DNA from: Escherichia coli
Lineage (GTDB): Bacteria > Pseudomonadota > Gammaproteobacteria > Enterobacterales > Enterobacteriaceae
Strand: one strand, 5' to 3'
DNA length: 64,000 nt
NCBI RefSeq assembly: GCF_041886205.1
Contig: NZ_CP169029.1
Shown one piece after another: positions 1-21,382 of this stretch (within the stretch, counting starts at the first letter, position 1; every line of letters starts with the position of its first letter). A program made the translations under genes and the position numbers. The notes under the pieces are model-generated. The model was given only the letters and a program-made list of their open reading frames with translations, made no database searches and was not told where the DNA came from.

Positions 1-3000
1 TGCAGGCCGGGATGTGAGCAGTCAGGGTGCAGGTATCGCAGCGGAAGACAACATCACTGTCCGGGCCGGGCGCGACGTTAATCTGCTGGCGGAAGAGTCC
101 GTGACCGGCAGCAGTTCATACTCGAAAAAGAAAACGGTCATTGATGAAACCGTTCGCCAGCAGGGAACGGAAATCGCCAGCGGTGGTGACACCACCATTA
201 CTGCAGGACGGGATATCACCGCTGTTGCGTCATCCGTTACCGCAACCGGCAATATCAGTGTGAATGCCGGTCGTGATGTCGCCCTGACCACGGCGACAGA
301 AAGTGACTATCACTATCTGGAAACGAAGAAAAAAAGCGGAGGTTTTCTCAGTAAGAAAACCACCCACACCATCAGTGAGAACAGTGCCACCCGTGAAGCA
401 GGCGCCCTGCTGTCGGGGAACCGCGTGACCGTTAACGCCGGTGATAACCTGACAGTACAGGGTTCGGATGTGGTGGCTGACCGGGATGTGTCACTGGCGG
501 CGGGTAACCATGTTGATGTTCTTGCTGCCACCAATACAGATACGTCCTGGCGCTTTAAGGAAACGAAGAAATCCGGTCTGATGGGTACCGGCGGTATTGG
601 TTTCACCATTGGCAGCAGTAAGACAACGCACGACCGCCGCGAGGCCGGGACAACGCAGAGTCAGAGTGCCAGCACCATCGGCTCCACTGCCGGTAATGTC
701 AGTATTACCGCGGGCAAACAGGCTCATATCAGCGGTTCGGATGTGATTGCGAACCGGGATATCCGCATTACCGGTGACAGTGTGGTGGTTGACCCGGGGC
801 ATGACCGTCGTACTGTGGACGAAAAATTTGAGCAGAAGAAAAGCGGGCTGACGGTTGCCCTTTCCGGCACAGTGGGCAGTGCCATCAATAATGCGGTTAC
901 CAGTGCACAGGAGACGAAGGAGAGCAGTGACAGCCGTCTGAAAGCCCTGCAGACCACAAAGACAGCGCTGTCTGGTGTGCAGGCCGGACAGGCTGCGGCA
1001 ATGGCCACCGCAACCGGTGACCCGAATGCGACGGGAGTCAGCCTGTCGCTCACCACCCAGAAATCGAAATCACAACAACATTCTGAAAGTGACACAGTAT
1101 CCGGCAGTACGCTGAATGCCGGGAATAATCTGTCTGTTGTCGCAACCGGCAAAAACAGGGGCGATAACCGCGGAGATATTGTGATTGCAGGAAGCCAGCT
1201 TAAGGCCGGTGGTAACACAAGCCTGGATGCCGCGAATGATATTCTGTTGAGTGGCGCTGCAAATACACAAAAAACAACGGGCAGGAACAGCAGCAGTGGC
1301 GGTGGCGTGGGTGTCAGTATCGGTGCCGGTGGTAACGGTGCCGGTATCAGTGTCTTTGCCAGCGTTAATGCGGCAAAAGGCAGCGAGAAAGGTAACGGTA
1401 CTGAGTGGACTGAAACCACAACAGACAGCGGTAAAACCGTCACCATCAACAGTGGTCGGGATACGGTACTGAACGGTGCTCAGGTCAACGGCAACAGGAT
1501 TATCGCCGATGTGGGCCACGACCTGCTGATAAGCAGCCAGCAGGACACCAGTAAGTACGACAGTAAACAGACCAGCGTGGCTGCCGGCGGCAGTTTTACC
1601 TTTGGCTCCATGACCGGCTCAGGTTACATCGCTGCCTCCCGGGATAAGATGAAGAGCCGCTTTGATTCCGTTGCTGAACAAACCGGAATGTTTGCCGGTG
1701 ACGGCGGCTTCGACATTACAGTGGGCAGACATACCCAACTGGATGGTGCGGTGATTGCCTCCACTGCCACACCGGATAAAAACCACCTGGATACCGGAAC
1801 GCTGGGGTTCAGTGACCTTCACAACGAAGCGGATTATAAAGTCAGTCACAGTGGAATCAGTCTGAGCGGTGGTGGCAGCTTCGGGGATAAATTTCAGGGT
1901 AACATGCCGGGTGGCATGATATCCGCCGGAGGTCACAGCGGACATGCGGAAGGAACGACTCAGGCCGCAGTGGCAGAAGGCACTATCACCATCCGGGACA
2001 GGGACAATCAGAAGCAGAATCTGGCGAACCTGAGCCGTGACCCTGCGCACGCTAATGACAGTATCAGCCCGATATTTGACAAGGAGAAAGAGCAGAGGCG
2101 TCTGCAGACAGTGGGGCTTATCAGTGACATAGGCAGTCAGGTGGCGGATATTGCGCGTACACAGGGAGAACTGAATGCGTTGAAGGCCGCGAAGGAAGCA
2201 ACCGGCGAAACACTTCCTGCTAATGCAACAGAGAAACAACGTCAGGAATATCTTGCGAAACTGCGTGACACGCAGGCTTACAGGAATGAAATGGCGAAGT
2301 ATGGCACTGGTAGTGAAATTCAGCGGGGTATCCAGGTCGCGATGGCAGCGCTTCAGGGCCTGGCGGGCGGCAATATGGCAGGCGCGCTGGCAGGTGCTTC
2401 AGCGCCGGAGCTGGCGAACATCATCGGTCATCACGCGGGTATTGATGACAATACAGCTGCAAAAGCCATTGCCCATGCCATTCTCGGTGGTGTGACAGCA
2501 GCCCTTCAGGGCAACAGTGCGGCAGCAGGCGCAATTGGCGCGGGTACTGGCGAAGTGATCGCGTCAGCCATTGCGAAAAGCCTCTACCCGGACGTAGATC
2601 CGTCGAAACTGACAGAAGAGCAGAAGCAAACTGTAAGCACGCTGGCAACGCTGTCAGCGGGTATGGCCGGCGGTATTGCCAGTGGCGATGTGGCTGGCGC
2701 GGCTGCTGGGGCTGGTGCCGGGAAGAACGTTGTTGAGAATAATTTACTTGGCGGTAGTGAAGATGCTCAGGCTGCGTGGATACGCCAGCATGGTATCGAC
2801 ATGGCGACATGTGCAGAAAACCCTTCCGGTGCCGCCTGCCAGAAAGCAATGAATGAGAGGGATGCTGTAGGGCTGGCTCTGGCAACAGGTACAGTGGCAC
2901 TACTCCCCGGTAGTGCTCAGGCTATGTGGGGACTGGGAGCAAGTGCGAATGCTGGTATCAGTTATCTGGCTGATGGTACTGTAGATCCGGCAAACGCAGC

Positions 3001-3406
3001 CATTGCAGGCTGGGTGAATGTGTTCAGCATGGGTAATGGCCTGGCGGGGACTGTGGGCTGGAATGCGGCAGGTGGTGCGCTGGGTAACTGGATCGACAAC
3101 AAAGATCCTCTGTCTGGTGCAATTTCAAATGGTATCGGTTCTGCTGCCGGGTATGGTATCGGTAAAGGTGTTACTTGGGGGACAGATAAGATTACGAATG
3201 CTGTAGGAAAATGGGTGACAAATGGCTGGGATCCTAAGTACGATCCAACATGGATAAAATATGCTGAAGTAAATCGTAACGATATCATTCGAGAAGGCAT
3301 GAAACCGAGCAATGTTCCTGGAACTGCTGGAGATATTGGCGGTTCTATAGGATCTGAGCTAGGTGGAAAAGTAACAGATAAAGTATCTGAGGAACTCAAG
3401 AAATGA
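1..3406 (+). CDS. cdiA: CdiA contact-dependent inhibition exoprotein, C-terminal part (5' partial, gene continues upstream of window)
   Basis: Frame open from window start; repeated AGRD/AGND hemagglutinin-type repeats; pretoxin region; VENN motif encoded at 2732-2743 followed by a ~220-aa glycine-rich C-terminal domain ending in a K-rich tail. Confidence 0.85.
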
Positions 3407-3660
3407 AATATTCTTCTCGAGTGGTAATAGGTAAGTTTATTATATGCAGTTCAATTCTCTTATTGTGTTTTATTGGCATGATCTTAGCGGCCATAATAAC
3501 TAAACTAACGTTTGTAGCGTTAGCATGGTTTCAAAGCGGGATTTTTGAAGTTTTGTGGAGCGATATTGTTTATGCTGCTCAGTTGGGTGGTCTGGGGGGG
3601 GGCATATTAGGTTTTTGTTGGGTTTTGTTATATCTTTTTAGGGCAAAGGGCTTTAGTTGA
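3403..3660 (+). CDS. cdiI: Putative CdiI immunity protein (85 aa, predicted membrane protein)
   Basis: Start overlaps cdiA stop (ATGA); small hydrophobic protein immediately after the toxin domain. Confidence 0.65.
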
Positions 3661-4564
3661 GAATAACTACCTCAGCTACGACGAGGCGCATGCTTTTGAC
3701 AGAGAAATGACGGCCTGTCGTAAAGCGGGTGGAGACTGTGGCGATATTCAGAATAAATATGCTGTATTAAGCGCAGAGAACCGACAGAAATTACACATTG
3801 ATGTGGCTGCAGATCCTCTTACGGCTCTGTCCGGGGAAGATAAATGGAATATTGAGGGCGGACTCAGCGCGGCGGGCCGACCTGGCTGGCTGTATGGTTC
3901 ACTGACTAATCAGGAGGTGAAGGATTACGTGACTGAAGGCAACAGCTACGACCTGAACTATCTGAACAGTAATACGTCGAAGGGTGACAGGGCTCTGGCT
4001 TTCTTCGGGGAACCGGAAAATTACTGGGGTACGGTTGCCGGAGCGGGTTCGTTGTTAACGTCATCAGCCACGCTGACTGAAAAATTTGTCAGTGCCGGGC
4101 TGAGCTATGGGGCTAATGGTGCGGTACAAATTGGTACGGGAAATATCGGTGATAAGTTCGATTATCTCAGTTTCATGATGTCAGGCTTGACTGGTGTAGG
4201 TACAGCCGGGAAAGGATATTACGCTAACCAGTTGTTGGGTGCTGGTAGTGCTTACATGAGCAGCCAGATTGAAGGCCAGGACAGTACCGCATCAGTAGTG
4301 GGTAGCATGGCTGGTACAGGCCTAGGATATAACGTTGGTGCTTCAATTACTAATAAGTTAGAAGCTCAATACATCAAAAATCAACTGGGAATGGACGCCA
4401 GTAAATATTCACTGCAATATTCGGAAAAGTCTATCGGATACGGTATGTATCAAGGCGGACAAATGAGTTCTATACCAGGAACATTTGGTGGATTTGTTGG
4501 TTCATTCGTATCAGAAGGTGCAAGCAGCGCAACGCAAAAAGAAGTTGATGGAGACAAAAAATGA
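3656..4564 (+). CDS. Orphan cdiA-CT module 1 (VENN remnant + glycine-rich toxin domain); internal ATG at 3707
   Basis: Frame begins with [11 protein letters not shown] directly after cdiI stop, with no upstream start; Gly-rich domain ending EVDGDKK like the main CT. Confidence 0.65.
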   Translation, partial: VENNYLSYDEAHAFDREMTACRKAGGDCGDIQNKYAVLSAENRQKLHIDVAADPLTALSGEDKWNIEGGLSAAGRPGWLYGSLTNQEVKDYVTEGNSYDLNYLNSNTSKGDRALAFFGEPENYWGTVAGAGSLLTSSATLTEKFVSAGLSYGANGAVQIGTGNIGDKFDYLSFMMSGLTGVGTAGKGYYANQLLGAGSAYMSSQIEGQDSTASVVGSMAGTGLGYNVGASITNKLEAQYIKNQLGMDASKYSLQYSEKSIGYGMYQGGQMSSIPGTFGGFVGSFVSEGASSATQKEVDGDKK

Positions 4565-4779
4565 AAAAATATCTACTACTTCTTATTAAGTTGTTACTTA
4601 TATCTATAGCTACTTGCTCTATTGGAATAGTGGTTAGTATCTGGCTTATAGCTCGGGAACCAATACCTTCTGAGGTGTATGTAAAATACGGAATAATTGG
4701 CGCAGTAGTTGGCTTATGGGGAGGTGCTGGGATTTGGTTACAACTCTATCTACAAATGCGAAGATACTATCGTAAATAG
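4561..4779 (+). CDS. Orphan cdiI 1 (72 aa membrane protein)
   Basis: ATGA overlap with preceding toxin module; strongly hydrophobic. Confidence 0.55.
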   Translation: MKKYLLLLIKLLLISIATCSIGIVVSIWLIAREPIPSEVYVKYGIIGAVVGLWGGAGIWLQLYLQMRRYYRK

Positions 4780-5429
4780 TTGTTGTTGAGAATAACTCAC
4801 TGGCGCATGTACTGGCAGCAGCGGAAGCGAACAAAGCAGGGACTGCAGAGAAATGGCAGGAAGAGCAGCAGGCTGCGATTAGAGAGGCGTGCAGTGGTGG
4901 TACGCCGGTTTCGTGTGAAACAGCAGTCGCAGCGATGGGAAGTGCAATGGTATGGCCGCTATTGCCAGGGGCGGCAGCCACTACAAGTCTGATAGGTGCA
5001 GGAGCGAATGCCGGCATCGGGTTACTGATTAACGGTGAAGTGAATCCAAATGATGTCATTCTTGGTTACTGGACGGGAGTCTTTACAGCAGGAACTAGGC
5101 TGTGGGGGACGATGGGTGTGAATGCGGCCAGCGGAGCCACATCCAGCTATCTAAAAGGTGATGATCCGCTGAAAGGTGGGGCAATGGGGGGAATGTCGTC
5201 AGGATTAGGATATGGTGCTGGCAAAGTTCTTCAGGGGCAACTCGATAAGTTCATTAATCCAAACTGGAAGAATTGGGAGTGGGTTGATGTTGGTATGGGC
5301 ATATCGAAGCCAATGCCATTAGATCCACTGCCTGGGGTTATCGGCAATATGGGAGGTTCTGCGTCTACAGAATACATCAACGATCGAATAGGAAAATCTT
5401 TGAGTGATAAATCAGGAGATAAGAAATGA
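4779..5429 (+). CDS. Orphan cdiA-CT module 2 (VVVENN + glycine-rich toxin domain); first ATG at 4935
   Basis: In-frame VENN codons at 4785-4796 with open frame through 5429; no start codon before 4935. Confidence 0.6.
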   Translation, partial: VVVENNSLAHVLAAAEANKAGTAEKWQEEQQAAIREACSGGTPVSCETAVAAMGSAMVWPLLPGAAATTSLIGAGANAGIGLLINGEVNPNDVILGYWTGVFTAGTRLWGTMGVNAASGATSSYLKGDDPLKGGAMGGMSSGLGYGAGKVLQGQLDKFINPNWKNWEWVDVGMGISKPMPLDPLPGVIGNMGGSASTEYINDRIGKSLSDKSGDKK

Positions 5430-5680
5430 GTTCTTCTGACCGCAAAAAGATCCTGATCCTTTTAATATGCATGGTGACTGGTAGTGCTGTTGGTGTTTTT
5501 ATAACCATACTATCTATGTCTTTATTAATAGATATATATCTATATATCGCAGAAGGTATAAGGTTAGACATGCATACATATAATCTTGAAAAACTTTTTA
5601 AAGTAAGTTCATTCTGTGGTTGTATAGGCGGCGGTGGCTGTTGGTTACTCTATTATCGAAATTATAGAAAAAATAAATAA
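5426..5680 (+). CDS. Orphan cdiI 2 (84 aa membrane protein)
   Basis: Overlapping start; hydrophobic segments. Confidence 0.55.
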   Translation: MSSSDRKKILILLICMVTGSAVGVFITILSMSLLIDIYLYIAEGIRLDMHTYNLEKLFKVSSFCGCIGGGGCWLLYYRNYRKNK

Positions 5681-5682
5681 TA

Positions 5683-5820
5683 GTTGAGAATAACTACCTC
5701 AGCTACGACGAGGCGCATGCTTTTGACAGAGAAATGACGGCCTGTCGTAAAGCGGGTGGAGACTGTGGCGATATTCAGAATAAATATGCTGTATTAAGCG
5801 CAGAGAACCGACAGAAATAG
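5683..5820 (+). pseudogene. Duplicated stub of orphan module 1 (VENN-proximal ~135 bp) ending in TAG
   Basis: 5684-5817 is a near-exact copy of 3658-3791, then TAG at 5818-5820, in the same frame as the following module. Confidence 0.6.
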
Positions 5821-7173
5821 GATATTGCCGGGCTCAGCCGGGACCCGGAAAACGCCAACGGCAGCATTGCACCGATATTTGACAGGGAGAAAGAGCAGAA
5901 GCGTCTTCAGGAAGCGCAGGTTATCAGCCAGATTAGCGGTCAGATGAGTAACATCGTCATGACGTATGGCGAAACTGAAGCGATGAAAGCAGCCAGGAAA
6001 GAGCATCCTGGCATGAGCGATGCACAGTTGCGGGAGACTCCGGAATACAGAGAGGTCATGAAAGGCTACGGTACGGGCAGTACGCCGCAGATGGTGGTAC
6101 AGGCCATCACAGGCGTGCTGGGCGGACTGAATGCAGGGAATCCGGGGCAGGTACTGGCTGGCGGTCTGAATCCGGCAGTGGCACAGCTTATAAAACAGGC
6201 CACCGGCGATAACCGGGAAGCAAACCTGATGGCTCACGCAGTCTGGGGAGCGCTTGCCGCACAACTGGGCGGAAACAATGCGGCTTCCGGTGCTGCAGGG
6301 GCATTCAGCGGTGAACTTGCAGCCCGGTATATCATTGATAACTACTACGGTGGTCGTACCGATAACCTGAGTGAACAGGAACGTCAGCAAATCAGCATGC
6401 TGGCCACCATTGCCTCAGGTATTGCGGGCGGGCTTGTCGGCAACAGTACAAGTGCTGCCGGTACGGGGGCACAGGCAGGCAGGAACTCGGTTGAGAATAA
6501 TGCGCTGAGTCTGGTTGCCAGAGGCTGTGCGGTCGCAGCACCTTGCAGGACTAAAGTTGCAGAGCAGTTGCTGGAAATCGGGGCGAAAGCGGGCATGGCC
6601 GGGCTTGCCGGGGCGGCAGTCAAGGATATGGCCGACAGGATGACCTCCGATGAACTGGAGCATCTGATTACCCTGCAAATGATGGGTAATGATGAGATCA
6701 CTACTAAGTATCTCAGTTCGTTGCATGATAAGTACGGTTCCGGGGCTGCCTCGAATCCGAATATCGGTAAAGATCTGACCGATGCGGAAAAAGTAGAACT
6801 GGGCGGTTCCGGCTCAGGAACCGGTACACCACCACCATCGGAAAATGATCCTAAGCAGCAAAATGAAAAACCTGTAGATAAGCTTAATCAGAAGCAAGAA
6901 AGTGCGATTAAGAAGATCGATAACACTATAAAAAATGCTCTGAAAGATCATGATATTATTGGAACTCTCAAGGATATGGATGGTAAGCCAGTTCCTAAAG
7001 AGAATGGAGGATATTGGGATCATATGCAGGAAATGCAAAATACGCTCAGAGGATTAAGAAATCATGCGGATACGTTGAAAAACGTCAACAATCCTGAAGC
7101 TCAGGCTGCGTATGGCAGAGCAACAGATGCTATTAATAAAATAGAATCAGCCTTGAAAGGATATGGAATATGA
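5821..7173 (+). CDS. Orphan cdiA pretoxin-VENN-CT module 3; toxin domain ends with GYGI
   Basis: ~220 codons homologous to the cdiA pretoxin region ([22 protein letters not shown]...), VENN at 6490-6501, C-terminal tetrapeptide GYGI at 7159-7170; first ATG at 5944. Confidence 0.7.
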
Positions 7174-7556
7174 TTACCTTACGTAAATTGATTGGAAACA
7201 TCAATATGACAAAAGAGCCTGAGCAACAATCACAGCTTGAACTCTGGTTCGAACGTATCATAGATGTGCCTCTTGAAAAGTTAACAGTGGAAGATCTTTG
7301 CCGCGCTATCCGACAAAATTTATGTATTGATCAGTTGATGCCAAGAGTGTTGGAAGTTCTAACTAAAGAGCCGTTAGCGGGTGAATATTACGATGGTGAA
7401 CTAATTGCAGCTTTATCAACGATAAAAGGAGAAGATCTAAAAGATCAGAAAAGTACCTTTACCCAAATAAGGCAACTTATAAACCAGCTAGAACCGTCAG
7501 ATATTAACGATGATTTAAGAAAAGATATATTAAAAATCAATCAGATAATTGTATAA
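7170..7556 (+). CDS. Orphan cdiI 3 (128 aa, soluble-type immunity protein)
   Basis: ATGA overlap with module 3 stop; non-hydrophobic protein. Confidence 0.55.
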
Positions 7557-7597
7557 CTAATCCCGGTCACTGAGCCGAGATCTTCTTTGTGTGCCGG

Positions 7598-9415
7598 GCA
7601 TGTTCAGCAGCTCGGGGGTGAAAGTCCCCTGTCCAGCCTGATGGTGGCGAAGGACTAGCGAAGCGCAAGGGCGTCGTCGTAAGGCGGGGTCTGAAGGAAG
7701 CGTGAAGCAAATCCATGACCTGACGAACAGAAATCCGATACGAGGCCTACCCGGTTGGCGGAGCAAGCAAAGAATTGCGAAGGCCATAACCATCAAGAAC
7801 CGGGGGGTAAATCGGACAGGTGTGTGGTGAAGGCGTCTGAACTTACCCCGGGAGGCCTGTCCGTCGTTCTGTATCTAGAACTTAGCGTACCGTAAGGGGC
7901 GCTGACCGGCGGACAGGAGTCAGCAGAGGGCATAGTAGGGCATGACACCCGAAGGCCCGAACGGTAATGAGTGACGAGTATCAACGGAGGTTCTGAACGG
8001 TCATGCAGCAGAAAACGCATCGCGCCCCTGAGGCCGGAGAACGGGGTGAAGCCCCGAACGCCGCCCTTCCGGGGGCTGAAACCGTGCAGGCACCGACGAA
8101 CAGAGAAAGTCCGTCGTCAACAGTGTGGCTGATGGAAGCCATTTGTGAACCAGTCAATCTCAGGCAAGCCCTGAAAAGAGTTAAAGCCAACAAAGGTGCA
8201 GCGGGAGTCGATGGTATGCGCGTAAGCGAACTGCCGGACTACCTGAGGCACCACTGGCCAGAGCTGAAAGCGCAACTACTGTCTGGCAGATACCGCCCAT
8301 CTCCTGTGAGAAGAGTGTCCATACCGAAGCCCGGCGGCGGCGAACGTCTGCTGGACATCCCGACGGTGGTGGATCGCTTCATCCAGCAGGCGATGATGCA
8401 GGTATTGCAGGGGCACTGTGGGATAGCTCGTTCAGCGATAACAGCTACGGGTTCCGTCCCGGTCGTTCGGCCCACCAGGCAGTGATACAGGCCCGGGAAC
8501 ATATCGGGGCCGGGTATCACTGGGTGGTCGACCTCGATCTGGAGAAGTTCTTCGACCGGGTAAATCACGATGTGCTGATGAGCCGGATAGAGAAACGAGT
8601 ATCGGATAAACGGGTGTTGTCACTTATCCGCAGGTTCATGAATGCAGGGGTGATGGACGCAGGTCTGGTAAGGCCGGTGACAGAAGGAACGCCGCAGGGC
8701 GGCCCACTGTCGCCGCTGCTATCGAACCTGCTGCTTGACGACCTCGACAAGGAACTGGAGAAACGTGGTCTGAAGTTCGTGCGGTACGCAGACGACTGTA
8801 ATGTCTACGTGAAAAGCGAACGGGCAGACAACCGGATCATGGCGGGGTTGACGCACTGGCTGAGCCATAAACTGAAGCTGAAGGTCAACGCGAAGAAGAG
8901 TGCTGTAGCACGCCCTGAAACGCGCAAGTTCCCTGGATACAGCTTCATAAGGGGGCGGAAGGTATGGTGCGTGGTATCGCCGGAGTCGATAAAACGGTTC
9001 AAAATGCGGATAAGAGCACTGACCGGACGCAACACAGGGAGAAGCCTTGAACAGCTAACCCGGTTGCTAAAACGATATCTGACGGGCTGGAAAAGTTACT
9101 ACGGGCTGAACCAGAGGCCATCGCTGATGCGAGAGCTGAACGGATGGATAAGGCGCAGTCGAGGCGTAAGCAAGGACCTTGCGGCGCAAACAGCAGGAAG
9201 CTGCCATAAAGAGTGGCGGATAAGCTGTAGTCCGGCACTGAATATAGCACTCCCCAATAATCTGTTCTCCAGACTGGGCCTGCCAGAAGTATAGGCAGGC
9301 GACGATCAACATAACCGAACCGCCGTATACGGCCCCATACGTACGGTGGTGTGGGAGGAAGCTGATCGTGAGATCAGCTCCTATCCCGATTTAACCGTCA
9401 GTCTCCCCCAAAATG
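7598..9415 (+). mobile_element. Group II intron (boundaries approximate)
   Basis: GUGUG-type 5' start near 7598, structured GC-rich RNA domains, internal RT/maturase ORF, domain V-like hairpin near 9320-9360. Confidence 0.65.
8003..9294 (+). pseudogene. Group II intron reverse transcriptase/maturase, frameshifted near 8420-8430
   Basis: RT motifs (SYGFRPGRSAHQA, YADD) split between ORF 8003-8485 and ORF 8482-9294; the correct frame switches between ...QVLQ and LWDSSFSDNSYGF. Confidence 0.75.
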
Positions 9416-9442
9416 CCCGTCCTGGCGCTTGTACACTGGCAT

Positions 9443-9535
9443 ATTGGCATGATCTTAGCGGCCATCATAGCTAAACTAACGTTTGTAGCGTTAACATGGT
9501 TTCAAAGCGGGATTTTTTAAGTTTTGTGGAATGAT
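9443..9535 (+). pseudogene. Decayed fragment homologous to cdiI (copy of ~3473-3565)
   Basis: About 90 bp at ~93% identity to the internal part of cdiI at 3403-3660, with a stop-creating substitution. Confidence 0.6.
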
Positions 9536-9735
9536 GCGTATTTTCATGAAAGGAGATCACTCAATAACTTCCATCGAGATCGGGTAATAACATTGTAAGC
9601 TTCCGGGGAACTCATATTGACGCGTTTTTCAGGCGCGCGTCATCGGCGGCGCATACGAACGATCGTGGTCTGATAACGGTTGATTTATTTTGTTGCACAG
9701 GGGCGATCGCCAGGCAGGTACCGGAGGCGGGCTCT

Positions 9736-9817
9736 GAAGTACTGAGTAGGGTGATCGCGTCAGGCCGCGAAGTACTGACTCGGGGATTAATGGCAGGTGA
9801 TGATGTACTGACCCGGG
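9736..9817. repeat. Three direct repeats GAWGTACTGA-N3-GGG spaced exactly 33 bp apart
   Basis: Copies begin at 9736, 9769 and 9802. Confidence 0.5.
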
Positions 9818-9956
9818 AATGACTCCGGGCTGATTCAGGTTCTTATTCGCTGTCAGCCCGTGTGGTTGCTGGTCTGGCTCATTTCCTGTCGTCAGGAGTT
9901 CAACTCCCGACTGCAGGTTATGGCCCGGTGCACGAACACCTGACGGCAGGTATCAC

Positions 9957-11444
9957 TCACCCGGAGAAGGTAAATCCCTCAAGAGGCAGCAACTCTGCCA
10001 GTCGCTCCTCCGGCCACTCCGGCAGACGCATCAGGACGTCTGTCAGCCAGGCATGCGGCTCCAGACCGTTGCGTTTCGCGGTTTCCAGCAAGCTCATTAT
10101 TTGCGCGGCGCGTTCTCCTGCCATCTGCGAACCGGCGAACAGCCACGATTTTCTGCCCAGGACCACGTTTTTGATGGCCCGTTCACACACATTATTATCC
10201 AGCGGCACCGCACCATCTTCCAGGAAGCGGCTTAGTTCCACGCGATGAGACAGCGCATAGACAATGGCTTTGTGTAATGCCCTTCCCGGAGAACATTGCG
10301 GTTCCTGCTCTTCAAGCCATGACCACAGATCTTCCAGTATCGGACGGGCATAACGCTGTCGCCACTGGCGGATTTTTTCCACGGGGCGGCTACTGATCTT
10401 CTTCTCAAGACGGTACAACCCCGCGATTTTCTTCACGGCGATGGCAGCCCGTGGATCTTTACTGATTTTATACAGGTCGGCGAAGCCCCTGCGGGCATGG
10501 GACCAGCATCCGGCCAGCGTGATCTCCGGCACTTTGTTTGCCAGAGTCCGGTAAGCTTTATGTCCGTCGACAACCAGCGTCCCGCCCCAGCCCTGAAGCC
10601 AGTTTTCAGGATACTCATGGCTACGTCCGGTCCGGCAGTTGAAGCACACAACTGACGGTCCCGTCCTTTCTCCACTGACGTATGCCCACAGATAACCGGA
10701 GCAGGATTTACCGCCTTTCTTCGTGTTCAGGAGCTTCAGGGTAGTCTCATCTGCATGCACCACCGGACGGTTTATCAACTCGCGATGGAGTAACGCCGCC
10801 AGGGGAGATAATGCGGCACCCGCCGCGCCAACCATGTCAGCCATCGAACTGACGGGAAGCCCGACATCTGAACGGGCAAAGACCTGTTGCTGGCGATACA
10901 GAGGCAGGTGGTCACCGTATTTATTGATGATCACCTGTGCGATGACTGATGGCTCAACGGCACTTTTCGGGAGGATATGTGCCGGCATTTCACCGCTGAA
11001 CACCTTCTGGCAACAGGGACAACTGTATTGCGGACGGACATAACAGTTCACCACGAAGTGAGCGGGAATATACTCCAGCTTTTCACTCACCGCATCACGG
11101 ATATAGTGCAGCGGCTCGTCACATTCAGGGCAATGGTCAGTGTCCGGCTGGATAATTTTTTCCACCCGTGGAAGATGAGCCGGTAAGGATTTGCGTATCG
11201 GGCGTGAACGGGACGCTTTTTCGTCTTCTTCAGGGGATTGCGGGAGCAGTTTATCCAGATGTGCGGTAAGCGCGGCGATATCGACATCAACATCCTCTTC
11301 GAACAGGGAGCGTTGCATACCAGCCAGCGTTTCACATTTTTTACCGAAGCGCTGTTGACGAACCAGTTTCAGCATTTCTTCCAGAAGCTGGATGCGCCGG
11401 CTTTTCTCCAGTAATTCCCGCTCTTTTTCGGCATTCTCCGACAT
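9957..11444 (-). CDS. tnpC: IS66-family transposase TnpC
   Basis: 495 aa; motifs [17 protein letters not shown], zinc-finger cysteines. Confidence 0.85.
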   Translation of the reverse strand: MSENAEKERELLEKSRRIQLLEEMLKLVRQQRFGKKCETLAGMQRSLFEEDVDVDIAALTAHLDKLLPQSPEEDEKASRSRPIRKSLPAHLPRVEKIIQPDTDHCPECDEPLHYIRDAVSEKLEYIPAHFVVNCYVRPQYSCPCCQKVFSGEMPAHILPKSAVEPSVIAQVIINKYGDHLPLYRQQQVFARSDVGLPVSSMADMVGAAGAALSPLAALLHRELINRPVVHADETTLKLLNTKKGGKSCSGYLWAYVSGERTGPSVVCFNCRTGRSHEYPENWLQGWGGTLVVDGHKAYRTLANKVPEITLAGCWSHARRGFADLYKISKDPRAAIAVKKIAGLYRLEKKISSRPVEKIRQWRQRYARPILEDLWSWLEEQEPQCSPGRALHKAIVYALSHRVELSRFLEDGAVPLDNNVCERAIKNVVLGRKSWLFAGSQMAGERAAQIMSLLETAKRNGLEPHAWLTDVLMRLPEWPEERLAELLPLEGFTFSG

Positions 11445-11564
11445 GACTTTTTATACCATGGCAAGTGCCATGGCACGCAGTTTTTCGATGTCATTCGTGG
11501 TGTTGAGAGCGGAGATGTCCATACAGGGGAGCATACCACTCCGGATACGGATATTAATTATTTT

Positions 11565-11957
11565 TCAATTAGTTAGCAGTGTATTTTGCGTGTTTTCAGG
11601 GCGCAGTTCAGGTTCATTCTGCCAGACCCATTTCGTCAGGTCATGTCCCTTAACCTGCTGCCAGTCAACACCGGCAATCAGCCAGTTAAACTCGTCGGGA
11701 GTGAGGTGCCAGGCAGCATCATTTGCACATGGCCAGCGGAAGCTGCCTTTGTGCAGACGGCGGGTACACAACCACACCCCGTGTTTATCCCACCGGAGAA
11801 CTTTGATACGCGAACGGGCTTTGTTAACAAAGACGAAGGCGGCTCCCCCATGCCATATCGACCGGAGTTCATCCTGTATATACTGCGTCAGTGCGTCGAT
11901 GCCCCGGCGCATGTCAACAGGTTTAATTGCGATGAAGACATTATCAGGACTGAGCAT
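11565..11957 (-). CDS. tnpB: IS66-family Orf2 (TnpB)
   Basis: Aligns with TnpB of the second IS66 copy (VLWADSDGLCLF / VLRWDKHGVWLC); start chosen at the internal Met. Confidence 0.75.
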   Translation of the reverse strand: MLSPDNVFIAIKPVDMRRGIDALTQYIQDELRSIWHGGAAFVFVNKARSRIKVLRWDKHGVWLCTRRLHKGSFRWPCANDAAWHLTPDEFNWLIAGVDWQQVKGHDLTKWVWQNEPELRPENTQNTLLTN

Positions 11958-12273
11958 ATTTGAGCGCCCTGAAGACATCGGTAAGTTGTGACGGCTGACA
12001 GCACATCCGTACTCCACCGGGAAGGAGGAGCGTGACTGGCTCATTCGTGACGGGCTGTGGTACATCAGCATGCAGTGGTGGCGCAATATGAACGGGAAGA
12101 ACGGTCGGTTCATTTGCCCGGCGTTCAGCTTTTGCGACATCCTGCGGCCATTCGCGAAGTGATGTGAAGGGAATATCGTTGAGTTCACAGTATTGCTGAC
12201 GTGTAAGACCACTGGCGCGCCAGGCAGCACGTTGCTGCCTTTTCTGTTCAATGGTCCATCGGGGTTTTGACAT
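11944..12273 (-). CDS. tnpA: IS66-family Orf1 (TnpA)
   Basis: 109 aa, immediately upstream of and overlapping tnpB. Confidence 0.7.
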   Translation of the reverse strand: MSKPRWTIEQKRQQRAAWRASGLTRQQYCELNDIPFTSLREWPQDVAKAERRANEPTVLPVHIAPPLHADVPQPVTNEPVTLLLPGGVRMCCQPSQLTDVFRALKYAQS

Positions 12274-12276
12274 TGA

Positions 12277-13413
12277 TTATCTCCGGTAAGTTGGTGAATG
12301 AATGTCGGTAATGCTAACTGACTGAAAATCTCTGTGAAGATGACTTCCCCGTAACGACACCTTCTTTATCGCCTGCCGAATGACGCTGTTCAGCGATTCG
12401 ATGGCATTCGTCGTGTAGATGGCCTTGCGGATATCCGGTGGGTAACCGAAGAAGGTGTTGAGATTTTCCCAGTGTGTGCGCCAGCTCTTGCTGATTTGCG
12501 GGTATTTTTTATCCCAGACGCCTGCAAACTTATCCAACGCCATCAACGCAGCTTCCTCTGTCGGGGCCTGATATACCGCTTTCAGCCCGCTGGTGACGGC
12601 TTTGTAATCCTTCCACGACACGAATTTCAGGCTGTTGCGCACCATATGGATGATGCAGAGCTGAATATGCGTCTGCGGGTATACGCTATTTATCGCTTCC
12701 GGGAAGCCTTTCAGGCCGTCCACGCAGGCAATCAGGATGTCCTGAAGGCCACGATTTTTCAGCTCAGTCAGTACACCCAGCCAGAACTTTGCACCTTCAT
12801 TTTCTGCCAGCCACATACCCAGCAGCTCTTTCTGACCGTCGGTATTGATGCCCAGCGCGAGGAACACCGCTTTGTTAATGACACTCCCGCCGTGACGAAC
12901 CTTAACCACAATACAGTCAAGATAAACAATGGGATACAGTGCATCCAACGGTCGGTTTTGCCATTCAGAGACCTGTTCTTTAACCGCATCGGTCACTTTG
13001 GATATCAGCGTGGGCGAGACATCGGCGTCGTACATTTCTTTGAACGTGGCAACGATTTCCCGCGTAGTCATGCCTTTGGCATACAGGGACAAAATCTGGC
13101 TGTCCATCTGGGTGATGCGTGTCTGATGCTTCTTAATTAGTTGCGGTTCGAAGGTATTTTCACGGTCACGCGGCGTGTTAAGTTCGATCTCGCCATCATC
13201 GCACAATACCGTTTTTGACGAGTAGCCATTACGGGTATTAGAGCCTGATTTAGGAGCATTTTTCTCATGACCGAGATGGTCAGTCAGTTCTGCATTGAGC
13301 GCCGTTTCGACGGTAAGCTTTGTCAACATGCGTGAAAACTGGTTGAGGTCGGCTTCGGTTTTAAGGCCTTTGGCCAGTTCAGCCGCAAGAGCTTTAAGTT
13401 TCTTTTCGTCCAT
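12277..13413 (-). CDS. IS256-family transposase, C-terminus apparently replaced at the junction with IS66 element 1
   Basis: 378 aa with IS256-type transposase features (MULE/DDE region); C-terminal 27 residues look non-native. Confidence 0.65.
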   Translation of the reverse strand: MDEKKLKALAAELAKGLKTEADLNQFSRMLTKLTVETALNAELTDHLGHEKNAPKSGSNTRNGYSSKTVLCDDGEIELNTPRDRENTFEPQLIKKHQTRITQMDSQILSLYAKGMTTREIVATFKEMYDADVSPTLISKVTDAVKEQVSEWQNRPLDALYPIVYLDCIVVKVRHGGSVINKAVFLALGINTDGQKELLGMWLAENEGAKFWLGVLTELKNRGLQDILIACVDGLKGFPEAINSVYPQTHIQLCIIHMVRNSLKFVSWKDYKAVTSGLKAVYQAPTEEAALMALDKFAGVWDKKYPQISKSWRTHWENLNTFFGYPPDIRKAIYTTNAIESLNSVIRQAIKKVSLRGSHLHRDFQSVSITDIHSPTYRR

Positions 13414-13718
13414 CGTTTGCCTGTCTCCGTTGTTGGAGTGAACATATCAAAAACAGGCAATTACACAATTTTAATTACAGTCTCTTCGGTTATTAACGAA
13501 ACTCAACAATAGCGCCTGGTTGTGAAACCAGTTTAACCATTTGAAGCTTAAACTCATTTGAAAATGATCTGCGGGGTTTTGCAGATAATGTTTTCTGTTC
13601 CATAACAGGTGTCCACTAGTTTTGAAGGTGGGCACCTACGTTACCAATACTGGCTTAATGTGTATTAGCTCAGACCTGATCTGACAGTTACCGGTTATTT
13701 ATACAGGTATCTGTCAGA

Positions 13719-14804
13719 TTACATCTGGCTTAAATTTTTCTCGACCCAGATGCGTTTTCCATCAAGTAACGTTTCCATTGGCGTCCGCCCATTGCACATT
13801 TTTCCCTGATGGGTTCGCTCATTATTATAGTGAGCCAGCCATTCATCAAGATCCGACTGTAATGTATCAAGATCGCCGTACAGTTTTTTACGGAACGTTA
13901 CCTGATAAAATTCGTTCAGGATTGTTTTATGGAACCGCTCGCAGATGCCGTTGGTCTGCGGGGACATCGCCTTTGTTTTCGTGTGTTCTATATCGTTTAT
14001 TGCCAGATAAAGCTGATAATCATGCTGCTCTACTTTGCCACAGTACTCCGTGCCTCTGTCGGTCAGTATTCTCAGCATCGGCAGGCCCTGAGACGCATAA
14101 AACGGCAGTACACGATCATTCAGTAAGTCAGCTGCGGTAATCGGTGTTTTGGTGACGTAAAGCTTACAGTGAGCCACTTTCGAGTACGTATCAACGAACG
14201 TCTGCTGATAAATACGCCCGACACCTTTCAGGTTGCCTACATAGAACGTGTCCTGCGAACCCAGATATCCAGGATGAGCCGTTTCGATTTCGCCACAGGC
14301 CTCGTCATCACTGGCTTTACGCTCCAGTGCTGCGATCTGGCTGTCAGTTAGCTCAATGCCATCACGGGCTACTTTTTCTTCCAGTGCTTTCAGACGTTTT
14401 TTGAAATTCTCAAGGTTATGGCGTAACAAGACAGAACGGACACCACTGCCGGAGATAAAAACGCCCTGTTTACGCAGCTCGTTGCTGGTCCGGTGCTGAC
14501 CGTGTGCCGGGAAAGCGACGGCGTAATCAACAACAGCCTGTTCAGTTGCCTCATCGGTACGGTTCTTAAGGTTAGGAGCGCGGCGACTACGATTAATCAG
14601 CGCATCCACACCGCCTTCATCGACCAGTTCGCGGTAACGATAAAACGTATCACGCGAAACGCCCATGATTTTACAGACTTTTGATTCGTTGCTGAGTTCT
14701 TCCGCCAGATTGAGCAAACCGGCTTTGTGTTTGATAACGGGATTGGTAGTATGAAGCATGAGAGTTACCTCGTGTTTTGTATAAGGATTCGACACCCATA
14801 TCAA
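13719..14804 (-). CDS. Transposase, HTH + DDE (rve) integrase core, IS481-family-like
   Basis: 361-aa single ORF with N-terminal HTH and integrase-core motifs. Confidence 0.7.
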   Translation of the reverse strand: MIWVSNPYTKHEVTLMLHTTNPVIKHKAGLLNLAEELSNESKVCKIMGVSRDTFYRYRELVDEGGVDALINRSRRAPNLKNRTDEATEQAVVDYAVAFPAHGQHRTSNELRKQGVFISGSGVRSVLLRHNLENFKKRLKALEEKVARDGIELTDSQIAALERKASDDEACGEIETAHPGYLGSQDTFYVGNLKGVGRIYQQTFVDTYSKVAHCKLYVTKTPITAADLLNDRVLPFYASQGLPMLRILTDRGTEYCGKVEQHDYQLYLAINDIEHTKTKAMSPQTNGICERFHKTILNEFYQVTFRKKLYGDLDTLQSDLDEWLAHYNNERTHQGKMCNGRTPMETLLDGKRIWVEKNLSQM

Positions 14805-14936
14805 AACCGGTAACTCTCAACCTTTCAAGGCTCAGTGTTAGCGCCAATGATATAAGACAGTAATTCACCATTTGAATTGTCCGCTCCACCCAACATGTTG
14901 TTTCCTTGAGGTTCTCACACCAGAAAGGACATCAAC

Positions 14937-16906
<1,970 letters not shown>

Positions 16907-17226: not shown

Positions 17227-17287
17227 TTTTGTGCGTAACCGGCTCATTTAAACCGTCTGGTCTGTTTCCTCCGGCTCTACAAAAATA

Positions 17288-17965
17288 ATGTCCATCATTT
17301 TTAATGGACACTATCGTATGAAACACCGGACCTGGATCACTGAAGCTTTACGTCTTCACTTTGAAGAACATTTACCCCGGGTTGTGGCCGGGCGTCGCCT
17401 GGGTGTACCAAAATCAACAGTTTGTAGTATGTTCGTGCGCTTTCGGAGAGCTGGCCTTTCGTGGCCTTTGCCCGCAGGCATGTCGGAGCAGGAACTTGAT
17501 GCCTGCCTTTACGGACAATTTTCCACGGTACCAGTCGTACGTCCTGAAAGCACCGTTATATCCGAAGCCCCCGTGGTAAAAAAACGTCCCCGGCGGCCCA
17601 ACTTCCCTTATGAGTTTAAAATCGCCTTAGTGGAGCAGTCACTGCAGCCCGGAGCCTGTGTGGCGCAGATCGCCCGGGAAAACGGAATCAACGATAACCT
17701 GCTCTTCAACTGGCGCCATCAATACCGGAAAGGTGGCCTGCTGCCTTCCGGAAAAAATATGCCGGCACTGCTTCCCGTGACGTTAACGCCGGAGCCGGAT
17801 AATAAAATCCCGGCCCCCGCACAGGAACCAGAGCAGATAAATACACCGTCCGACAGTCTGTGTTGTGAGCTGGTTCTGCCGGCCGGAACTCTCAGGCTTA
17901 AAGGTAAACTGACGCCGGCGTTATTACAGACACTTATCCGCGAAATAAAAGGGAGCAGCCACTGA
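17288..17965 (+). CDS. tnpA: IS66-family Orf1 (TnpA-like); start uncertain
   Basis: HTH region; first gene after the left inverted repeat. Confidence 0.6.
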   Translation: MSIIFNGHYRMKHRTWITEALRLHFEEHLPRVVAGRRLGVPKSTVCSMFVRFRRAGLSWPLPAGMSEQELDACLYGQFSTVPVVRPESTVISEAPVVKKRPRRPNFPYEFKIALVEQSLQPGACVAQIARENGINDNLLFNWRHQYRKGGLLPSGKNMPALLPVTLTPEPDNKIPAPAQEPEQINTPSDSLCCELVLPAGTLRLKGKLTPALLQTLIREIKGSSH

Positions 17966-18312
17966 TGATATCTCTCCCTGCAGGTTCGCGTATCTGGCTG
18001 GTTGCAGGTATCACCGATATGCGAAATGGCTTTAACGGCCTGGCATCAAAAGTTCAGAACGTCCTGAAGGATGACCCGTTCTCCGGACACCTGTTCATCT
18101 TCCGCGGACGCCGGGGTGACCAGATAAAAGTGTTGTGGGCTGACAGTGACGGACTGTGCCTCTTCACCAAACGCCTGGAGCGGGGCCGCTTCGTCTGGCC
18201 AGTCACCCGTGACGGCAAGGTGCACCTTACTCCGGCTCAGTTATCCATGCTTCTTGAAGGTATCAACTGGAAGCACCCGAAACGAACGGAACGCGCTGGA
18301 ATCCGCATATAA
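17965..18312 (+). CDS. tnpB: IS66-family Orf2 (TnpB)
   Basis: 115 aa, typical TnpB sequence. Confidence 0.85.
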   Translation: MISLPAGSRIWLVAGITDMRNGFNGLASKVQNVLKDDPFSGHLFIFRGRRGDQIKVLWADSDGLCLFTKRLERGRFVWPVTRDGKVHLTPAQLSMLLEGINWKHPKRTERAGIRI

Positions 18313-18331
18313 CCCGTTGTAAAGTGAGGAT

Positions 18332-19903
18332 ATGGACACCTCACTTGCTCATGAGAACGCCCGCCTGCGGGCACTGTTGCAGACGCAACAGGACACCATC
18401 CGCCAGATGGCTGAATACAACCGCCTGCTCTCACAGCGGGTGGCGGCTTATGCTTCCGAAATCAACCGGCTGAAGGCGCTGGTTGCGAAACTGCAACGTA
18501 TGCAGTTCGGTAAAAGCTCAGAAAAACTTCGTGCAAAAACCGAACGGCAGATACAGGAAGCACAGGAGCGAATCAGCGCACTTCAGGAAGAAATGGCGGA
18601 AACGCTGGGTGAGCAATATGACCCGGTACTGCCATCCGCCCTGCGCCAGTCTTCAGCCCGTAAACCGTTACCGGCCTCACTTCCCCGTGAAACCCGGGTT
18701 ATCCGGCCGGAAGAGGAATGCTGTCCTGCCTGTGGTGGTGAACTCAGTTCTCTGGGATGTGATGTGTCAGAGCAACTGGAGCTTATCAGCAGCGCCTTTA
18801 AGGTTATCGAAACACAACGTCCGAAACAGGCCTGTTGCCGGTGCGACCATATCGTGCAGGCACCAGTACCTTCAAAACCCATTGCACGCAGTTATGCCGG
18901 AGCGGGGCTTCTGGCCCATGTTGTCACCGGGAAATATGCAGACCATCTGCCGTTATACCGCCAGTCAGAAATATACCGTCGTCAGGGAGTGGAGCTGAGC
19001 CGTGCCACACTGGGGCGCTGGACAGGTGCTGTTGCTGAACTGCTGGAGCCGCTGTATGACGTCCTGCGCCAGTATGTGCTGATGCCCGGTAAAGTCCATG
19101 CTGATGATATCCCCGTCCCGGTCCAGGAGCCGGGCAGCGGTAAAACCCGGACAGCCCGGCTGTGGGTCTACGTCCGTGATGACCGTAACGCCGGTTCACA
19201 GATGCCCCCGGCGGTCTGGTTCGCGTACAGTCCGGACCGGAAAGGTATCCATCCACAAAATCACCTGGCCGGTTACAGCGGTGTGCTTCAGGCCGATGCT
19301 TACGGTGGTTACCGGGCGTTATACGAATCCGGCAGAATAACGGAAGCCGCGTGTATGGCTCATGCCCGGAGAAAAATCCACGATGTGCATGCAAGAGCGT
19401 CCACCTACATCACCACGGAAGCCCTGCAGCGTATCGGTGAACTGTATGCCATCGAGGCAGAGGTCCGGGGCTGTTCAGCAGAACAGCGTCTGGCGGCAAG
19501 AAAAGCCAGAGCCGCGCCACTGATGCAGTCACTGTATGACTGGATACAGCAACAGATGAAAACACTGTCGCGTCACTCAGATACGGCAAAAGCGTTCGCA
19601 TACCTGCTGAAACAGTGGGATGCACTGAACGTGTACTGCAGTAATGGCTGGGTGGAAATCGACAACAACATCGCAGAGAACGCCTTACGGGGAGTGGCCG
19701 TAGGCCGGAAAAACTGGATGTTCGCGGGTTCCGACAGCGGTGGTGAACATGCGGCGGTGTTGTACTCGCTGATCGGCACATGCCGTCTGAACAATGTGGA
19801 GCCAGAAAAGTGGCTGCGTTACGTCATTGAACATATCCAGGACTGGCCGGCAAACCGGGTACGCGATCTGTTGCCCTGGAAAGTTGATCTGAGCTCTCAG
19901 TAA
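18332..19903 (+). CDS. tnpC: IS66-family transposase TnpC
   Basis: 523 aa; leucine-zipper N-terminus, zinc-finger cysteines, [20 protein letters not shown]. Confidence 0.9.
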
Positions 19904-19906
19904 ATA

Positions 19907-21382
19907 TCAATACGGTTCTGACGAGTCGCTTACTTTTGTGCTGTCGCCAAAATCACTAATCCCTCTCACAATAAGCGCTGGAACTCCCTGCTTTTCGCAG
20001 GCATCAAATACCCCATAGGCTTCCATTTCGGCAACACAGGCTTTGTCATGAAGCGACCTGAAACGTTCTAGTAAAGCAGGATCGCGGATAAGAAGCTCTC
20101 CTGATGCGATAGTGGCTGAAGAAACAATTATCCCAGCAGCTACGTCTCCAGCCTGCGAATTTTCAGGCATTTCGAGTCCTATAGCCTGTGCCCGTTCGCC
20201 AAGACGTGCGGATAGTGACGTTGTTGCAAGGTAAGTATTGAGGTTTTGTTTAGTTGGCATATGGAGACATAATATTTCAGGTCGAGGAGCAAACTTCCCA
20301 CCTTCTAATGCGGCTGCACTTTCATAATAAATGACACGCTCAGAAATAATGACTTCACCTAGCACCATTTTTTCTCTCAACCCCGCCGCAATCCCCATCA
20401 TCAAGACTTTTTGGGGTTTGAATTCCGACAACAACATGGTAGTAATAGCTGAAGCATTCACATTTCCAGCACTAGCGAAAGACGCCACTATGCCAGTTAC
20501 TGGGCCATCTGAGCGTTGTATGGATGTGGACCAGAAATGTATTCCATTTGATGTGAGCCGCGGAGATTCATCATCAGCTATGCCAAATACTTTCTTGGCT
20601 GCAGCAAGTTCAACTGGTAGAGCTGTCAAAATCAACACATTTGGAGTATGCAGCAACTGTTGTGCAGCCCATTCAGCTTTAAGCAATTCAACTGCGATTT
20701 CTGAAAGTCGTTCCAGTCCATAGTAAGGTTCCTGTAACGATAAAGTGTCGAGCTGATTTTTTACGGCTTCACCGGTGCAAGGGAACATAGACAGCGGCTC
20801 TGCATAAAAACGTGCATGTAGGCCTAAAGCACCTTTTCCGTCATCGCAAATTCCCCCAAGCTCCAAGTCAAACGGTAATATGGGGTGGTTGGCTTTACGC
20901 ATTTTACTCGCACGATCGGAAACGCCTTTTCCTCCACCTAATGCAATCATGGCTGTGGCAGCATCAACCTGCTCGCTTCCAATATTTCCTCCAGTAATGA
21001 GATCATCATCTAGATAGCTGACATCAGCAAATCTAGCTGCCTGAAGTTTACGAATAAGCATCCGATTCTCTTCAGACATTTTCTCCCGCATTGCAGAACG
21101 CGACGTGACGATCTTGAGTTGGTGGGCTGGCGTATAATTCTCCATTAAATCTACAGCTTCTTTTACTATCGTCCAGTCGAAGGTCAGGAGATCCCCATTT
21201 TCATTAACAGGTTCTCCTGCCAAATAGACAACTAGTCCCACATTTGCATCAAGGATGCTCTTCGTCAATGCTCGAACGAAACTATGTGCTCGATCAATAT
21301 AAAGTTTTTCTGTATTTTTGGATATACTTCCAGCGATCAGAACATACTCATTATTAGTATTTGTCATCACAATTCTTCCCAA
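19907..21382 (-). CDS. Two-domain protein: N-terminal Rossmann-like domain with GGGKG motif (possible ligand sensor) + C-terminal PNP/MTA-nucleosidase-family domain; 3' end interrupted by IS66 element 2
   Basis: C-terminal half has nucleosidase-like motifs (VAEMEAYGV, RGISDFGD); last 8 codons and stop are IS-encoded (VSDSSEPY*). Confidence 0.6.
   Translation of the reverse strand: MGRIVMTNTNNEYVLIAGSISKNTEKLYIDRAHSFVRALTKSILDANVGLVVYLAGEPVNENGDLLTFDWTIVKEAVDLMENYTPAHQLKIVTSRSAMREKMSEENRMLIRKLQAARFADVSYLDDDLITGGNIGSEQVDAATAMIALGGGKGVSDRASKMRKANHPILPFDLELGGICDDGKGALGLHARFYAEPLSMFPCTGEAVKNQLDTLSLQEPYYGLERLSEIAVELLKAEWAAQQLLHTPNVLILTALPVELAAAKKVFGIADDESPRLTSNGIHFWSTSIQRSDGPVTGIVASFASAGNVNASAITTMLLSEFKPQKVLMMGIAAGLREKMVLGEVIISERVIYYESAAALEGGKFAPRPEILCLHMPTKQNLNTYLATTSLSARLGERAQAIGLEMPENSQAGDVAAGIIVSSATIASGELLIRDPALLERFRSLHDKACVAEMEAYGVFDACEKQGVPALIVRGISDFGDSTKVSDSSEPY

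Follow-up and report, generated by a model that had tools for sequence, protein, structure and literature searches.

The question raised by this locus is what three short, regularly spaced direct repeats in a 64,000-nucleotide stretch of Escherichia coli DNA (contig NZ_CP169029.1; the whole stretch is called the window below) represent, and to which genetic unit they belong. The repeats share the motif GAWGTACTGANNNGGG (GAWGTACTGA-N3-GGG). It has exactly three matches in the 64-kb window, all of them on the plus strand (9736-9751, 9769-9784 and 9802-9817), with start-to-start distances of 33 and 33 bp. The exact 33-bp spacing described in a first-pass annotation of this DNA is borne out: against the three matches observed, windows shuffled with preserved dinucleotide composition contained a mean of 0.13, and none of 100 shuffles reached three. 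An independent repeat-finding run recovered the same motif family as repeats D2/D3. Tandem Repeats Finder reported no array at the motif region, because the 17-nt spacers between the cores of the repeats are dissimilar. For a more sensitive description, a weight matrix of 28 nt was built from the repeat units of 10 lineages and the whole window was scanned on both strands. The three sites score 35-39 bits, the next best site on either strand 10.2 bits, and the three array units are the only sites above 12 bits in 64 kb. The motif array is real and not a product of chance. The absence of an open reading frame over the motifs was likewise confirmed, as no ORF that begins with a start codon exceeds 28 aa in 9596-9960.

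The insertion sequence that carries the repeats

The motifs had been described as lying next to a nest of insertion sequences (IS). This is wrong, as they lie inside an IS, 141-222 bp from its right end and between the stop codon of tnpC and the right terminal inverted repeat. The element is a complete, ISEc49-like member of the IS66 family with a length of 2766 bp (9595-12360, minus strand). An intact copy in E. coli OkiPb01695 (L095), a genome with 10 matching places, shares 98.6% identity with it over the 2766 bp. Since the 8-bp duplication CTTTCTCT is found on both sides of the OkiPb01695 copy, the two termini of the element are fixed. In a megablast comparison of 9300-10300 with complete E. 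coli genomes, homology to ISEc49-annotated elements starts at window position 9594/9595. The name ISEc49 rests on the PGAP product label “IS66-like element ISEc49 family transposase” of the matching copies. The first-pass annotation had itself named a known IS66-family subterminal sequence as the observation that would speak against its claim, and this is what the motifs within the ISEc49-like element are. The finding is largely ordinary in this respect, as the motifs belong to a catalogued E. coli insertion sequence.

The window element is an IS66-family member by the domains of its TnpC, its accessory genes and its terminal repeats. The gene tnpC (9957-11522, minus strand) codes for the DDE transposase, and its ORF in the window matches the Pfam families DDE_Tnp_IS66 (E=7e-88), zf-IS66, LZ_Tnp_IS66 and DDE_Tnp_IS66_C. 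The intact TnpC of the OkiPb01695 copy reaches 438 bits with the NCBIfam model NF033517 (cut-off 180). In the window tnpC is a pseudogene with an in-frame stop at 11451-11453, which is seen in the translation and is flagged by PGAP as “internal stop” in the identical locus of ZYB39. The window copy is therefore inactive. The accessory protein gene tnpB (11565-11957, minus strand) is identified by Pfam TnpB_IS66 (E=1e-33, 115 bits) and by NCBIfam NF033819, above the cut-off. The second accessory gene, tnpA (11944-12273, minus strand), codes for a protein of 109 aa which matches NCBIfam NF047593 (IS66_ISAeme5_TnpA) with 45.8 bits at a cut-off of 28 and gave no match in Pfam. The right terminal inverted repeat (IRR; 9595-9621, minus strand; inverted repeat I1) reads GTAAGCTTCCGGGGAACTCATATTGAC inward from the tip, and its junction with the flanking DNA is visible in L095. 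The left terminal inverted repeat (IRL; 12334-12360, minus strand) reads GTGTCGTTACGGGGAAGTCATCTTCAC, and 19 of 27 positions match between both. The IRR starts with GTAAGC and the ISEc49 IRL with GTGTCG; the IRL of sister lineages starts with GTAATG or GTAACG. Between the tnpC stop codon and the IRR there is a subgroup-specific non-coding region of 335 bp (9622-9956, minus strand), which holds the array and in which no promoter or terminator consensus was found.

A target duplication is missing at the window copy, the 8-bp flanks being ATAACATT and CTTCTTTA (9587-9594 and 12361-12368). On its left side the copy interrupts an ISEc39 (IS256-like) transposase gene (12361-13413). In the identical ZYB39 locus, tnpA-tnpB-tnpC (IS66 family) are annotated within the truncated ISEc39 (IS256-like) transposase gene. 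The mismatched flanks of the window copy suggest a later deletion or recombination between IS copies. For IS66 a target duplication of 8 bp has been reported, and mismatched flanks were attributed to inter-copy recombination (PMC6778807).

Several other features surround the element. A reverse-transcriptase ORF (8482-9294, plus strand) is followed by a match to the Rfam group II intron domain V/VI (9318-9390). This match has 33.6 bits, below the gathering score of 40, with E=4e-4, and is the only Rfam match in 9300-12500. The region 8482-9390 resembles the 3′ portion of a group II intron. It is situated about 200 bp upstream of the right tip of the IS66 element. Upstream of the IS cluster, a contact-dependent inhibition locus covers window positions 14-7556. 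It consists of a long Gly-rich ORF (14-3406), a fragment (5944-7173) for which the identical locus of ZYB39 carries the annotation VENN-motif pre-toxin domain protein, and cdiI (7170-7556). The IS cluster further contains an IS481-family transposase gene (13719-14804, minus strand) and IS21-family istA/istB (14937-16906, plus strand), both names being taken from the identical ZYB39 annotation. ZYB39 is identical to window 5791-16300; its copy of another IS66-family element, ISCro1, is 98.7% identical and located elsewhere, inside cdiA.

Anatomy and conservation of the array

Read in the orientation of the IS (minus strand), the array consists of three units of 33 bp. Unit R1 (9786-9818; TTCCCGGGTCAGTACATCATCACCTGCCATTAA) contains the core CCCGGGTCAGTACATC, which corresponds to the motif at 9802-9817, and scores 35.3 bits. 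Unit R2 (9753-9785; TCCCCGAGTCAGTACTTCGCGGCCTGACGCGAT) has the core CCCGAGTCAGTACTTC (motif 9769-9784; 36.4 bits). Unit R3 (9720-9752; CACCCTACTCAGTACTTCAGAGCCCGCCTCCGG), which is closest to the terminus, has the core CCCTACTCAGTACTTC (motif 9736-9751; 39.4 bits). The conserved unit is larger than the motif described earlier and reads CCC-N3-TCAGTACWTC-N4-CCYGMC in IS orientation. Among the 33 positions of a unit, 16 are identical across all three units of the window, clustered as CCC-N3-TCAGTAC-N-TC-N4-CC-N-G-N-C. The other positions are unit-specific, and the 17-nt spacers are no more alike than expected by chance. A tentative and weak candidate for a degenerate fourth unit, R0 (9836-9851, minus strand), is located 34 bp upstream of R1. 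It reads GCGAATAAGAACCTG in the window and GCGGGTCAGAACCTG in several other lineages, and came to light in the alignment and when L005 and L092 were scanned for cores with 2 mismatches allowed.

The array units do not resemble the terminal inverted repeat. A comparison by eye of the unit sequence GAAGTACTGA with the inner part of the inverted repeat (GAACTCATAT or GAAGTCATCT) gives about 5 matches in 10 positions. The left end of the IS lies wholly within the window, and a matching inverted set of sites, for which the first-pass annotation had suggested to look, is absent there. When the whole IS was scanned with the weight matrix on both strands, neither the left end nor the opposite strand yielded a site above background; the best left-end candidate (12145-12172) reaches 5.7 bits, below the background maximum of 10.2 bits in the window. 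The pattern of three sites in the same orientation at the right end only is repeated in five full-length elements of four lineages, in which the weight matrix gave no array site above background outside the right-end units on either strand.

Directly after the tnpC stop codon a conserved stem-loop is located (9885-9950, minus strand; inverted repeat I5) with 17-nt arms that are 88% complementary. Its stem is kept in 9 lineages with almost no covariation (RNAalifold). The pentamer GTCAG/CTGAC was counted by eye 6 times in the 365 bp of 9595-9960, compared to about 0.7 occurrences expected in random sequence. These sites are found in both hairpin arms, two repeat cores and the R2 spacer, and the GTCAG pentamer may be an elementary recognition element of the right-end module.

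Of 5426 complete E. coli genomes, 2821 contain matches to the right-end region; 243 plasmids, which come almost entirely from Escherichia and Shigella, match as well. For comparison we used 13 further distinct copies with 73-99% identity and, in addition, metagenome-derived elements. The array is present in every lineage examined of this Escherichia/Shigella IS subgroup and is an integral, conserved part of the ISEc49-like right-end non-coding region. R3 occurs in all related copies examined, with TCAGT.CTT being invariant in alignment A1. The spacer of each unit type is common to different lineages, while the cores stay alike between units. As the unit-specific spacers are shared across lineages, the triplication preceded the separation of these lineages. 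The number of units varies from 1 to 3 among the copies through deletions of whole units. L004, a complete-looking element, has two units and lacks R2, and L093 carries an R1/R2 hybrid unit. Most lineages space their units by 33 bp; the distances are 32 and 40 bp for the L005/L092 orphan and 34 and 33 bp for L168/L160. Three units and exact phasing are thus perhaps not required, given the two units of L004 and the 32-, 34- and 40-bp spacings. The central A of GTAC in the R3 core (position 6) varies between A, C, G and T among lineages, so that not all core positions are constrained. The statement that a 33-bp period places the sites on one DNA face holds approximately: 33 bp correspond to 3.14 turns at 10.5 bp per turn, which amounts to a rotation of about 50 degrees per unit, and the phasing is further weakened by the 32-, 34- and 40-bp spacings of related lineages.

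The most informative divergent lineage, L168/L160, is 74-75% identical overall to the window element. It came from two of seven loci of this IS group that were recovered in a metagenome scan for two exact cores, in which most of the matches were unrelated repeats. Compared with the window in 90-nt bins, the right end of L168/L160 is 51, 48, 60 and 31% identical. The local peak of 60% is the array bin, the other bins reaching 31-51%. All three cores are retained in this lineage (CCCGAGTCAGTACTCG, CCCTGGTCAGTACTTC and CCCTGCTCAGTACTTC). The contrast between cores and spacers is the pattern expected of purifying selection on the cores, and the alignments suggest such a constraint.

Part of the similarity between lineages probably has another origin. 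Window and L003 are 73.5% identical overall and 85-97% across 9748-10047. The highest values, 93-97%, are observed for 9868-10047, which comprises the last ~90 bp of tnpC and the first ~90 nt after its stop codon with the stem-loop. This segment may be either a recombination tract or a constrained cis element. L136, from a food metagenome (contig UOZA01000188), is a mosaic IS with a breakpoint inside tnpC: it follows the L003 lineage with 90-100% identity over positions 1-1049 and ISEc49 with 96-100% identity from 1050 to the end. L136 is direct evidence that IS66 lineages recombine. Exchange between lineages is frequent, and in view of the L136 mosaic, part of the high right-end identity between window and L003 is likely due to exchange rather than constraint.

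Right ends without a complete element were observed as well. In E. coli K-12 MG1655, an orphan right-end fragment with 79.8% identity is located near 4,270,869-4,271,164 (hit H80; also L006). This orphan, which K-12 shares with many other strains, has one R1/R3 hybrid as its only unit, and its sole annotation is “transposase domain-containing protein”. The K-12-type orphan explains most of the 60-80% identity matches across E. coli genomes. Another orphan right end with array lies beside the csc sucrose-utilisation genes (L092, 3143-3505; L005, 3001-3336) and is present on both a chromosome and an IncF plasmid. ISEc23 was considered as owner of the array in L092 and rejected, as ISEc23 had inserted into the csc-adjacent orphan right end. 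In E. coli O157:H7 strain 3384 (L090, 3420-3720) and also in L089, two consecutive right ends of the ISEc49 group were found, the second of which is partial and begins exactly at the R3 core (…GGAACAATACC|TCAGTTCTTCAGAACCCGCC…). Either an element inserted in the R3 of another one, or the repeats recombined. At this locus, IS682 is also inserted, into the tnpC remnant.

Possible functions of the array

We give about an even chance to the reading that the units are cis-acting binding sites for a sequence-specific DNA-binding protein, present at the right end only. The units are short, directly repeated at intervals of about three helical turns, modular in their number, seemingly constrained at the DNA level and different from the inverted repeat, and a binding-site array fits such units best. 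It is also possible, although we doubt it, that the array is a functionless relic, i.e., an ancient 33-bp triplication which hitch-hikes in a dispensable spacer, the likeness of the cores being historical or maintained by conversion or slippage. The change in unit number from 1 to 3 by whole-unit deletions, the complete-looking L004 with two units and the free variation of R3 core position 6 would agree with a relic. The same applies to typical IS66 members, in which only ~30 bp follow tnpC (as seen in ISCro1) and which have no array, and to mosaic recombination, which accounts for part of the cross-lineage identity. However, neutral decay should erode cores and spacers equally, and a uniform decay is disfavoured because the cores are alike, with the 16 of 33 identical positions arranged in blocks, while the spacers diverged. 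Gene conversion is disfavoured because it would have homogenised the spacers as well. Furthermore, the cores persist in the L168 lineage despite flanking bins of 31-51%. An RNA-level role appears unlikely. In this case the array would lie in a structured or protein-bound 3′ UTR of tnpABC together with the 9885-9950 stem-loop, or in an antisense transcript of the right end, and would control stability or translation of the transposase mRNA. In its favour, the region comes right after tnpC, where a conserved hairpin adjoins the stop codon, and the 3′ end of tnpC with this hairpin is the most similar segment (96-97%) of the two lineages with 73.5% overall identity. Nevertheless, Rfam 15 gave no match at E<=1 within the IS, the folding z-scores of the whole region are modest on both strands (-1.7 and -2.1), and the covariation term upstream of the array is only -0.4 kcal/mol (RNAalifold, 9 lineages). 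By inspection, the units form no conserved hairpin, the complement of the motif occurs nowhere else in the IS, and the variable number of units suits modular DNA sites better than one fixed fold. The sRNA Esr41 was considered as a possible link and is unrelated, as it lies on SpLE1 near iha.

The binding of a host protein, either TetR-like or nucleoid-associated, which modulates the IS or was co-opted by it, seems distinctly improbable to us. AGTACT, a palindromic hexamer, forms part of the core, and IS10 and Tn5 are known examples of elements with host-factor sites at a single end. GTCAGT resembles one half-site of the SlmA-binding sequence, a 12-bp palindrome (GTGAGTACTCAC) in which G1, T2, A4 and G5 are required in both half-sites (PMC3020112). 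An SlmA site was rejected, as R1 and R2 have one near half-site (GTCAGT) and the other one lacks G1 and T2. In addition, position 3 is C where a purine is needed, and R3 lacks G1. We know of no other host-factor consensus that fits the units. The period of 33 bp, a multiple of three, would also correspond to 11 codons and thus to an 11-residue peptide repeat in an unannotated small protein, read as PxSVL from the IS strand or as (E/D)VL(T/S)R from the plus strand of the window. The array is spanned by frames free of stops, 107 codons long on the IS strand and 75 codons long on the opposite one, gene callers annotated hypothetical proteins there in some copies, and the indels of the L005/L092 lineage sum up to +6 nt. 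However, a start codon is missing from the 107-codon frame, and the multi-copy ISEc49 has a stop within the other frame. In the L168 lineage no opposite-strand frame stays intact, and the 34-bp spacing places its units in frames that differ from one another. Substitutions are distributed over the three phases as 90, 78 and 92, i.e., show no coding periodicity, and equally long stop-free runs occur in 21% of composition-matched random sequences. The coding reading is largely refuted for both strands and is very improbable. Finally, the first-pass annotation had mentioned iterons. Plasmid-type iterons controlling a replication origin share with the array only the regular spacing of direct repeats. 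The array is located between tnpC and the IS terminus and travels with the IS, on chromosomes as well as plasmids; neither a rep gene nor an origin is found nearby, and 3869 of the 3990 matching places in E. coli genomes are chromosomal. By this context the iteron reading is refuted, and the chance that it applies nevertheless is negligible.

With regard to binding sites for a DNA-binding protein, the candidate binder would most plausibly be encoded by the IS itself, be it one of the small accessory proteins, TnpA or TnpB, or an additional DNA-binding module within TnpC. The first-pass annotation had suggested multi-site transposase-binding ends. The subterminal position, the direct repeats and a conservation pattern suggesting constraint agree with this proposal, whereas the missing inverted set at the other end and the missing likeness to the terminal inverted repeat do not. 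The units would accordingly not be extra copies of the terminal transposase site. They may rather work like a transpositional enhancer or an end-asymmetry element, on which several protomers could load at intervals of roughly three turns, 140-220 bp from the cleavage site. The specific version of this proposal, a right-end-specific enhancer or asymmetry element bound by accessory TnpA or TnpB, is tentative, and we regard it as possible rather than probable. To our knowledge, no role has been assigned to TnpA and TnpB of the IS66 family, and the searchable literature yielded no mechanistic study of them. If the proposal is true, the array would be the first cis-acting handle on the action of TnpA/TnpB and on end discrimination in the IS66 transpososome. 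The IS66 family is widespread, and the array-bearing Escherichia/Shigella subgroup has intact multi-copy members; a one-end array in such a subgroup would be a convenient entry point for gel-shift and mini-transposon work. For annotation, the repeats can be used to mark the right end of the ISEc49 group, including orphan fragments as in E. coli K-12; to annotate them as iterons or as a regulatory locus in its own right would be mistaken.

Comparison with other IS66 elements and transposon ends

ISEc49 and its close Escherichia/Shigella relatives have the gene order tnpA-tnpB-tnpC, the terminal inverted repeats and the array within the element in common. Among the ISEc49 copies, the window copy differs by its defective tnpC and the lack of a flanking duplication. 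A second, complete IS66-family element, ISCro1, was identified in the window at 17235-19933 and is flanked by a perfect 8-bp duplication, TTTTGTGC (17227-19941). Typical IS66 elements like ISCro1, IS66 and IS679 share the three genes, inverted repeats starting with GTAA and the 8-bp target duplication. ISCro1, in contrast, has only 30 bp from the tnpC stop codon to the tip and no repeat array. A TnpC-based scan of contigs yielded one close relative and 79 distant elements, of which 68 were usable, having 200 nt or more of downstream sequence after the TnpC match. A phased triple 10-mer repeat after TnpC was found in none of these 68 distant IS66 loci, and the same script detected the window control. 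The array is therefore unnecessary for IS66 transposition in general. Within this comparison, the array-bearing module of about 300 bp is an addition confined to the Escherichia/Shigella subgroup. The searchable literature yielded no account of subterminal repeats for the IS66 family.

Subterminal repeats are known from other transposable elements. The sites L1-L3 and R1-R3 of Mu, the TnsB sites of Tn7 and the multiple terminal repeats of IS21 are located at both ends, are inverted between the ends and share sequence with the terminal site. Like these, the ISEc49 units are direct repeats within about 220 bp of the terminus with a spacing of whole helical turns, but they occur at one end only and are unlike the inverted repeat. 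The array thus departs from ends of the Mu/Tn7/IS21 type on both points, the inverted sites at both ends and the shared terminal sequence. The distribution at one end only is unusual among subterminal transposon repeat arrays. In En/Spm, a 12-bp subterminal motif is bound by that element's own accessory protein TnpA and not by the transposase. En/Spm resembles the situation described here in its short subterminal repeats, and IS66 elements likewise encode accessory proteins, which are candidates for binding the array. However, it is eukaryotic, carries many repeats at both ends and in both orientations, and there is no homology. One-sided cis elements are also known, namely the internal activation sequence (enhancer) of Mu and the host-factor sites of IS10 or Tn5. 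Such elements share with the ISEc49 array their restriction to one side and a sequence unlike that of the terminal repeats, and by analogy a one-sided cis element would be the favoured functional model for the array.
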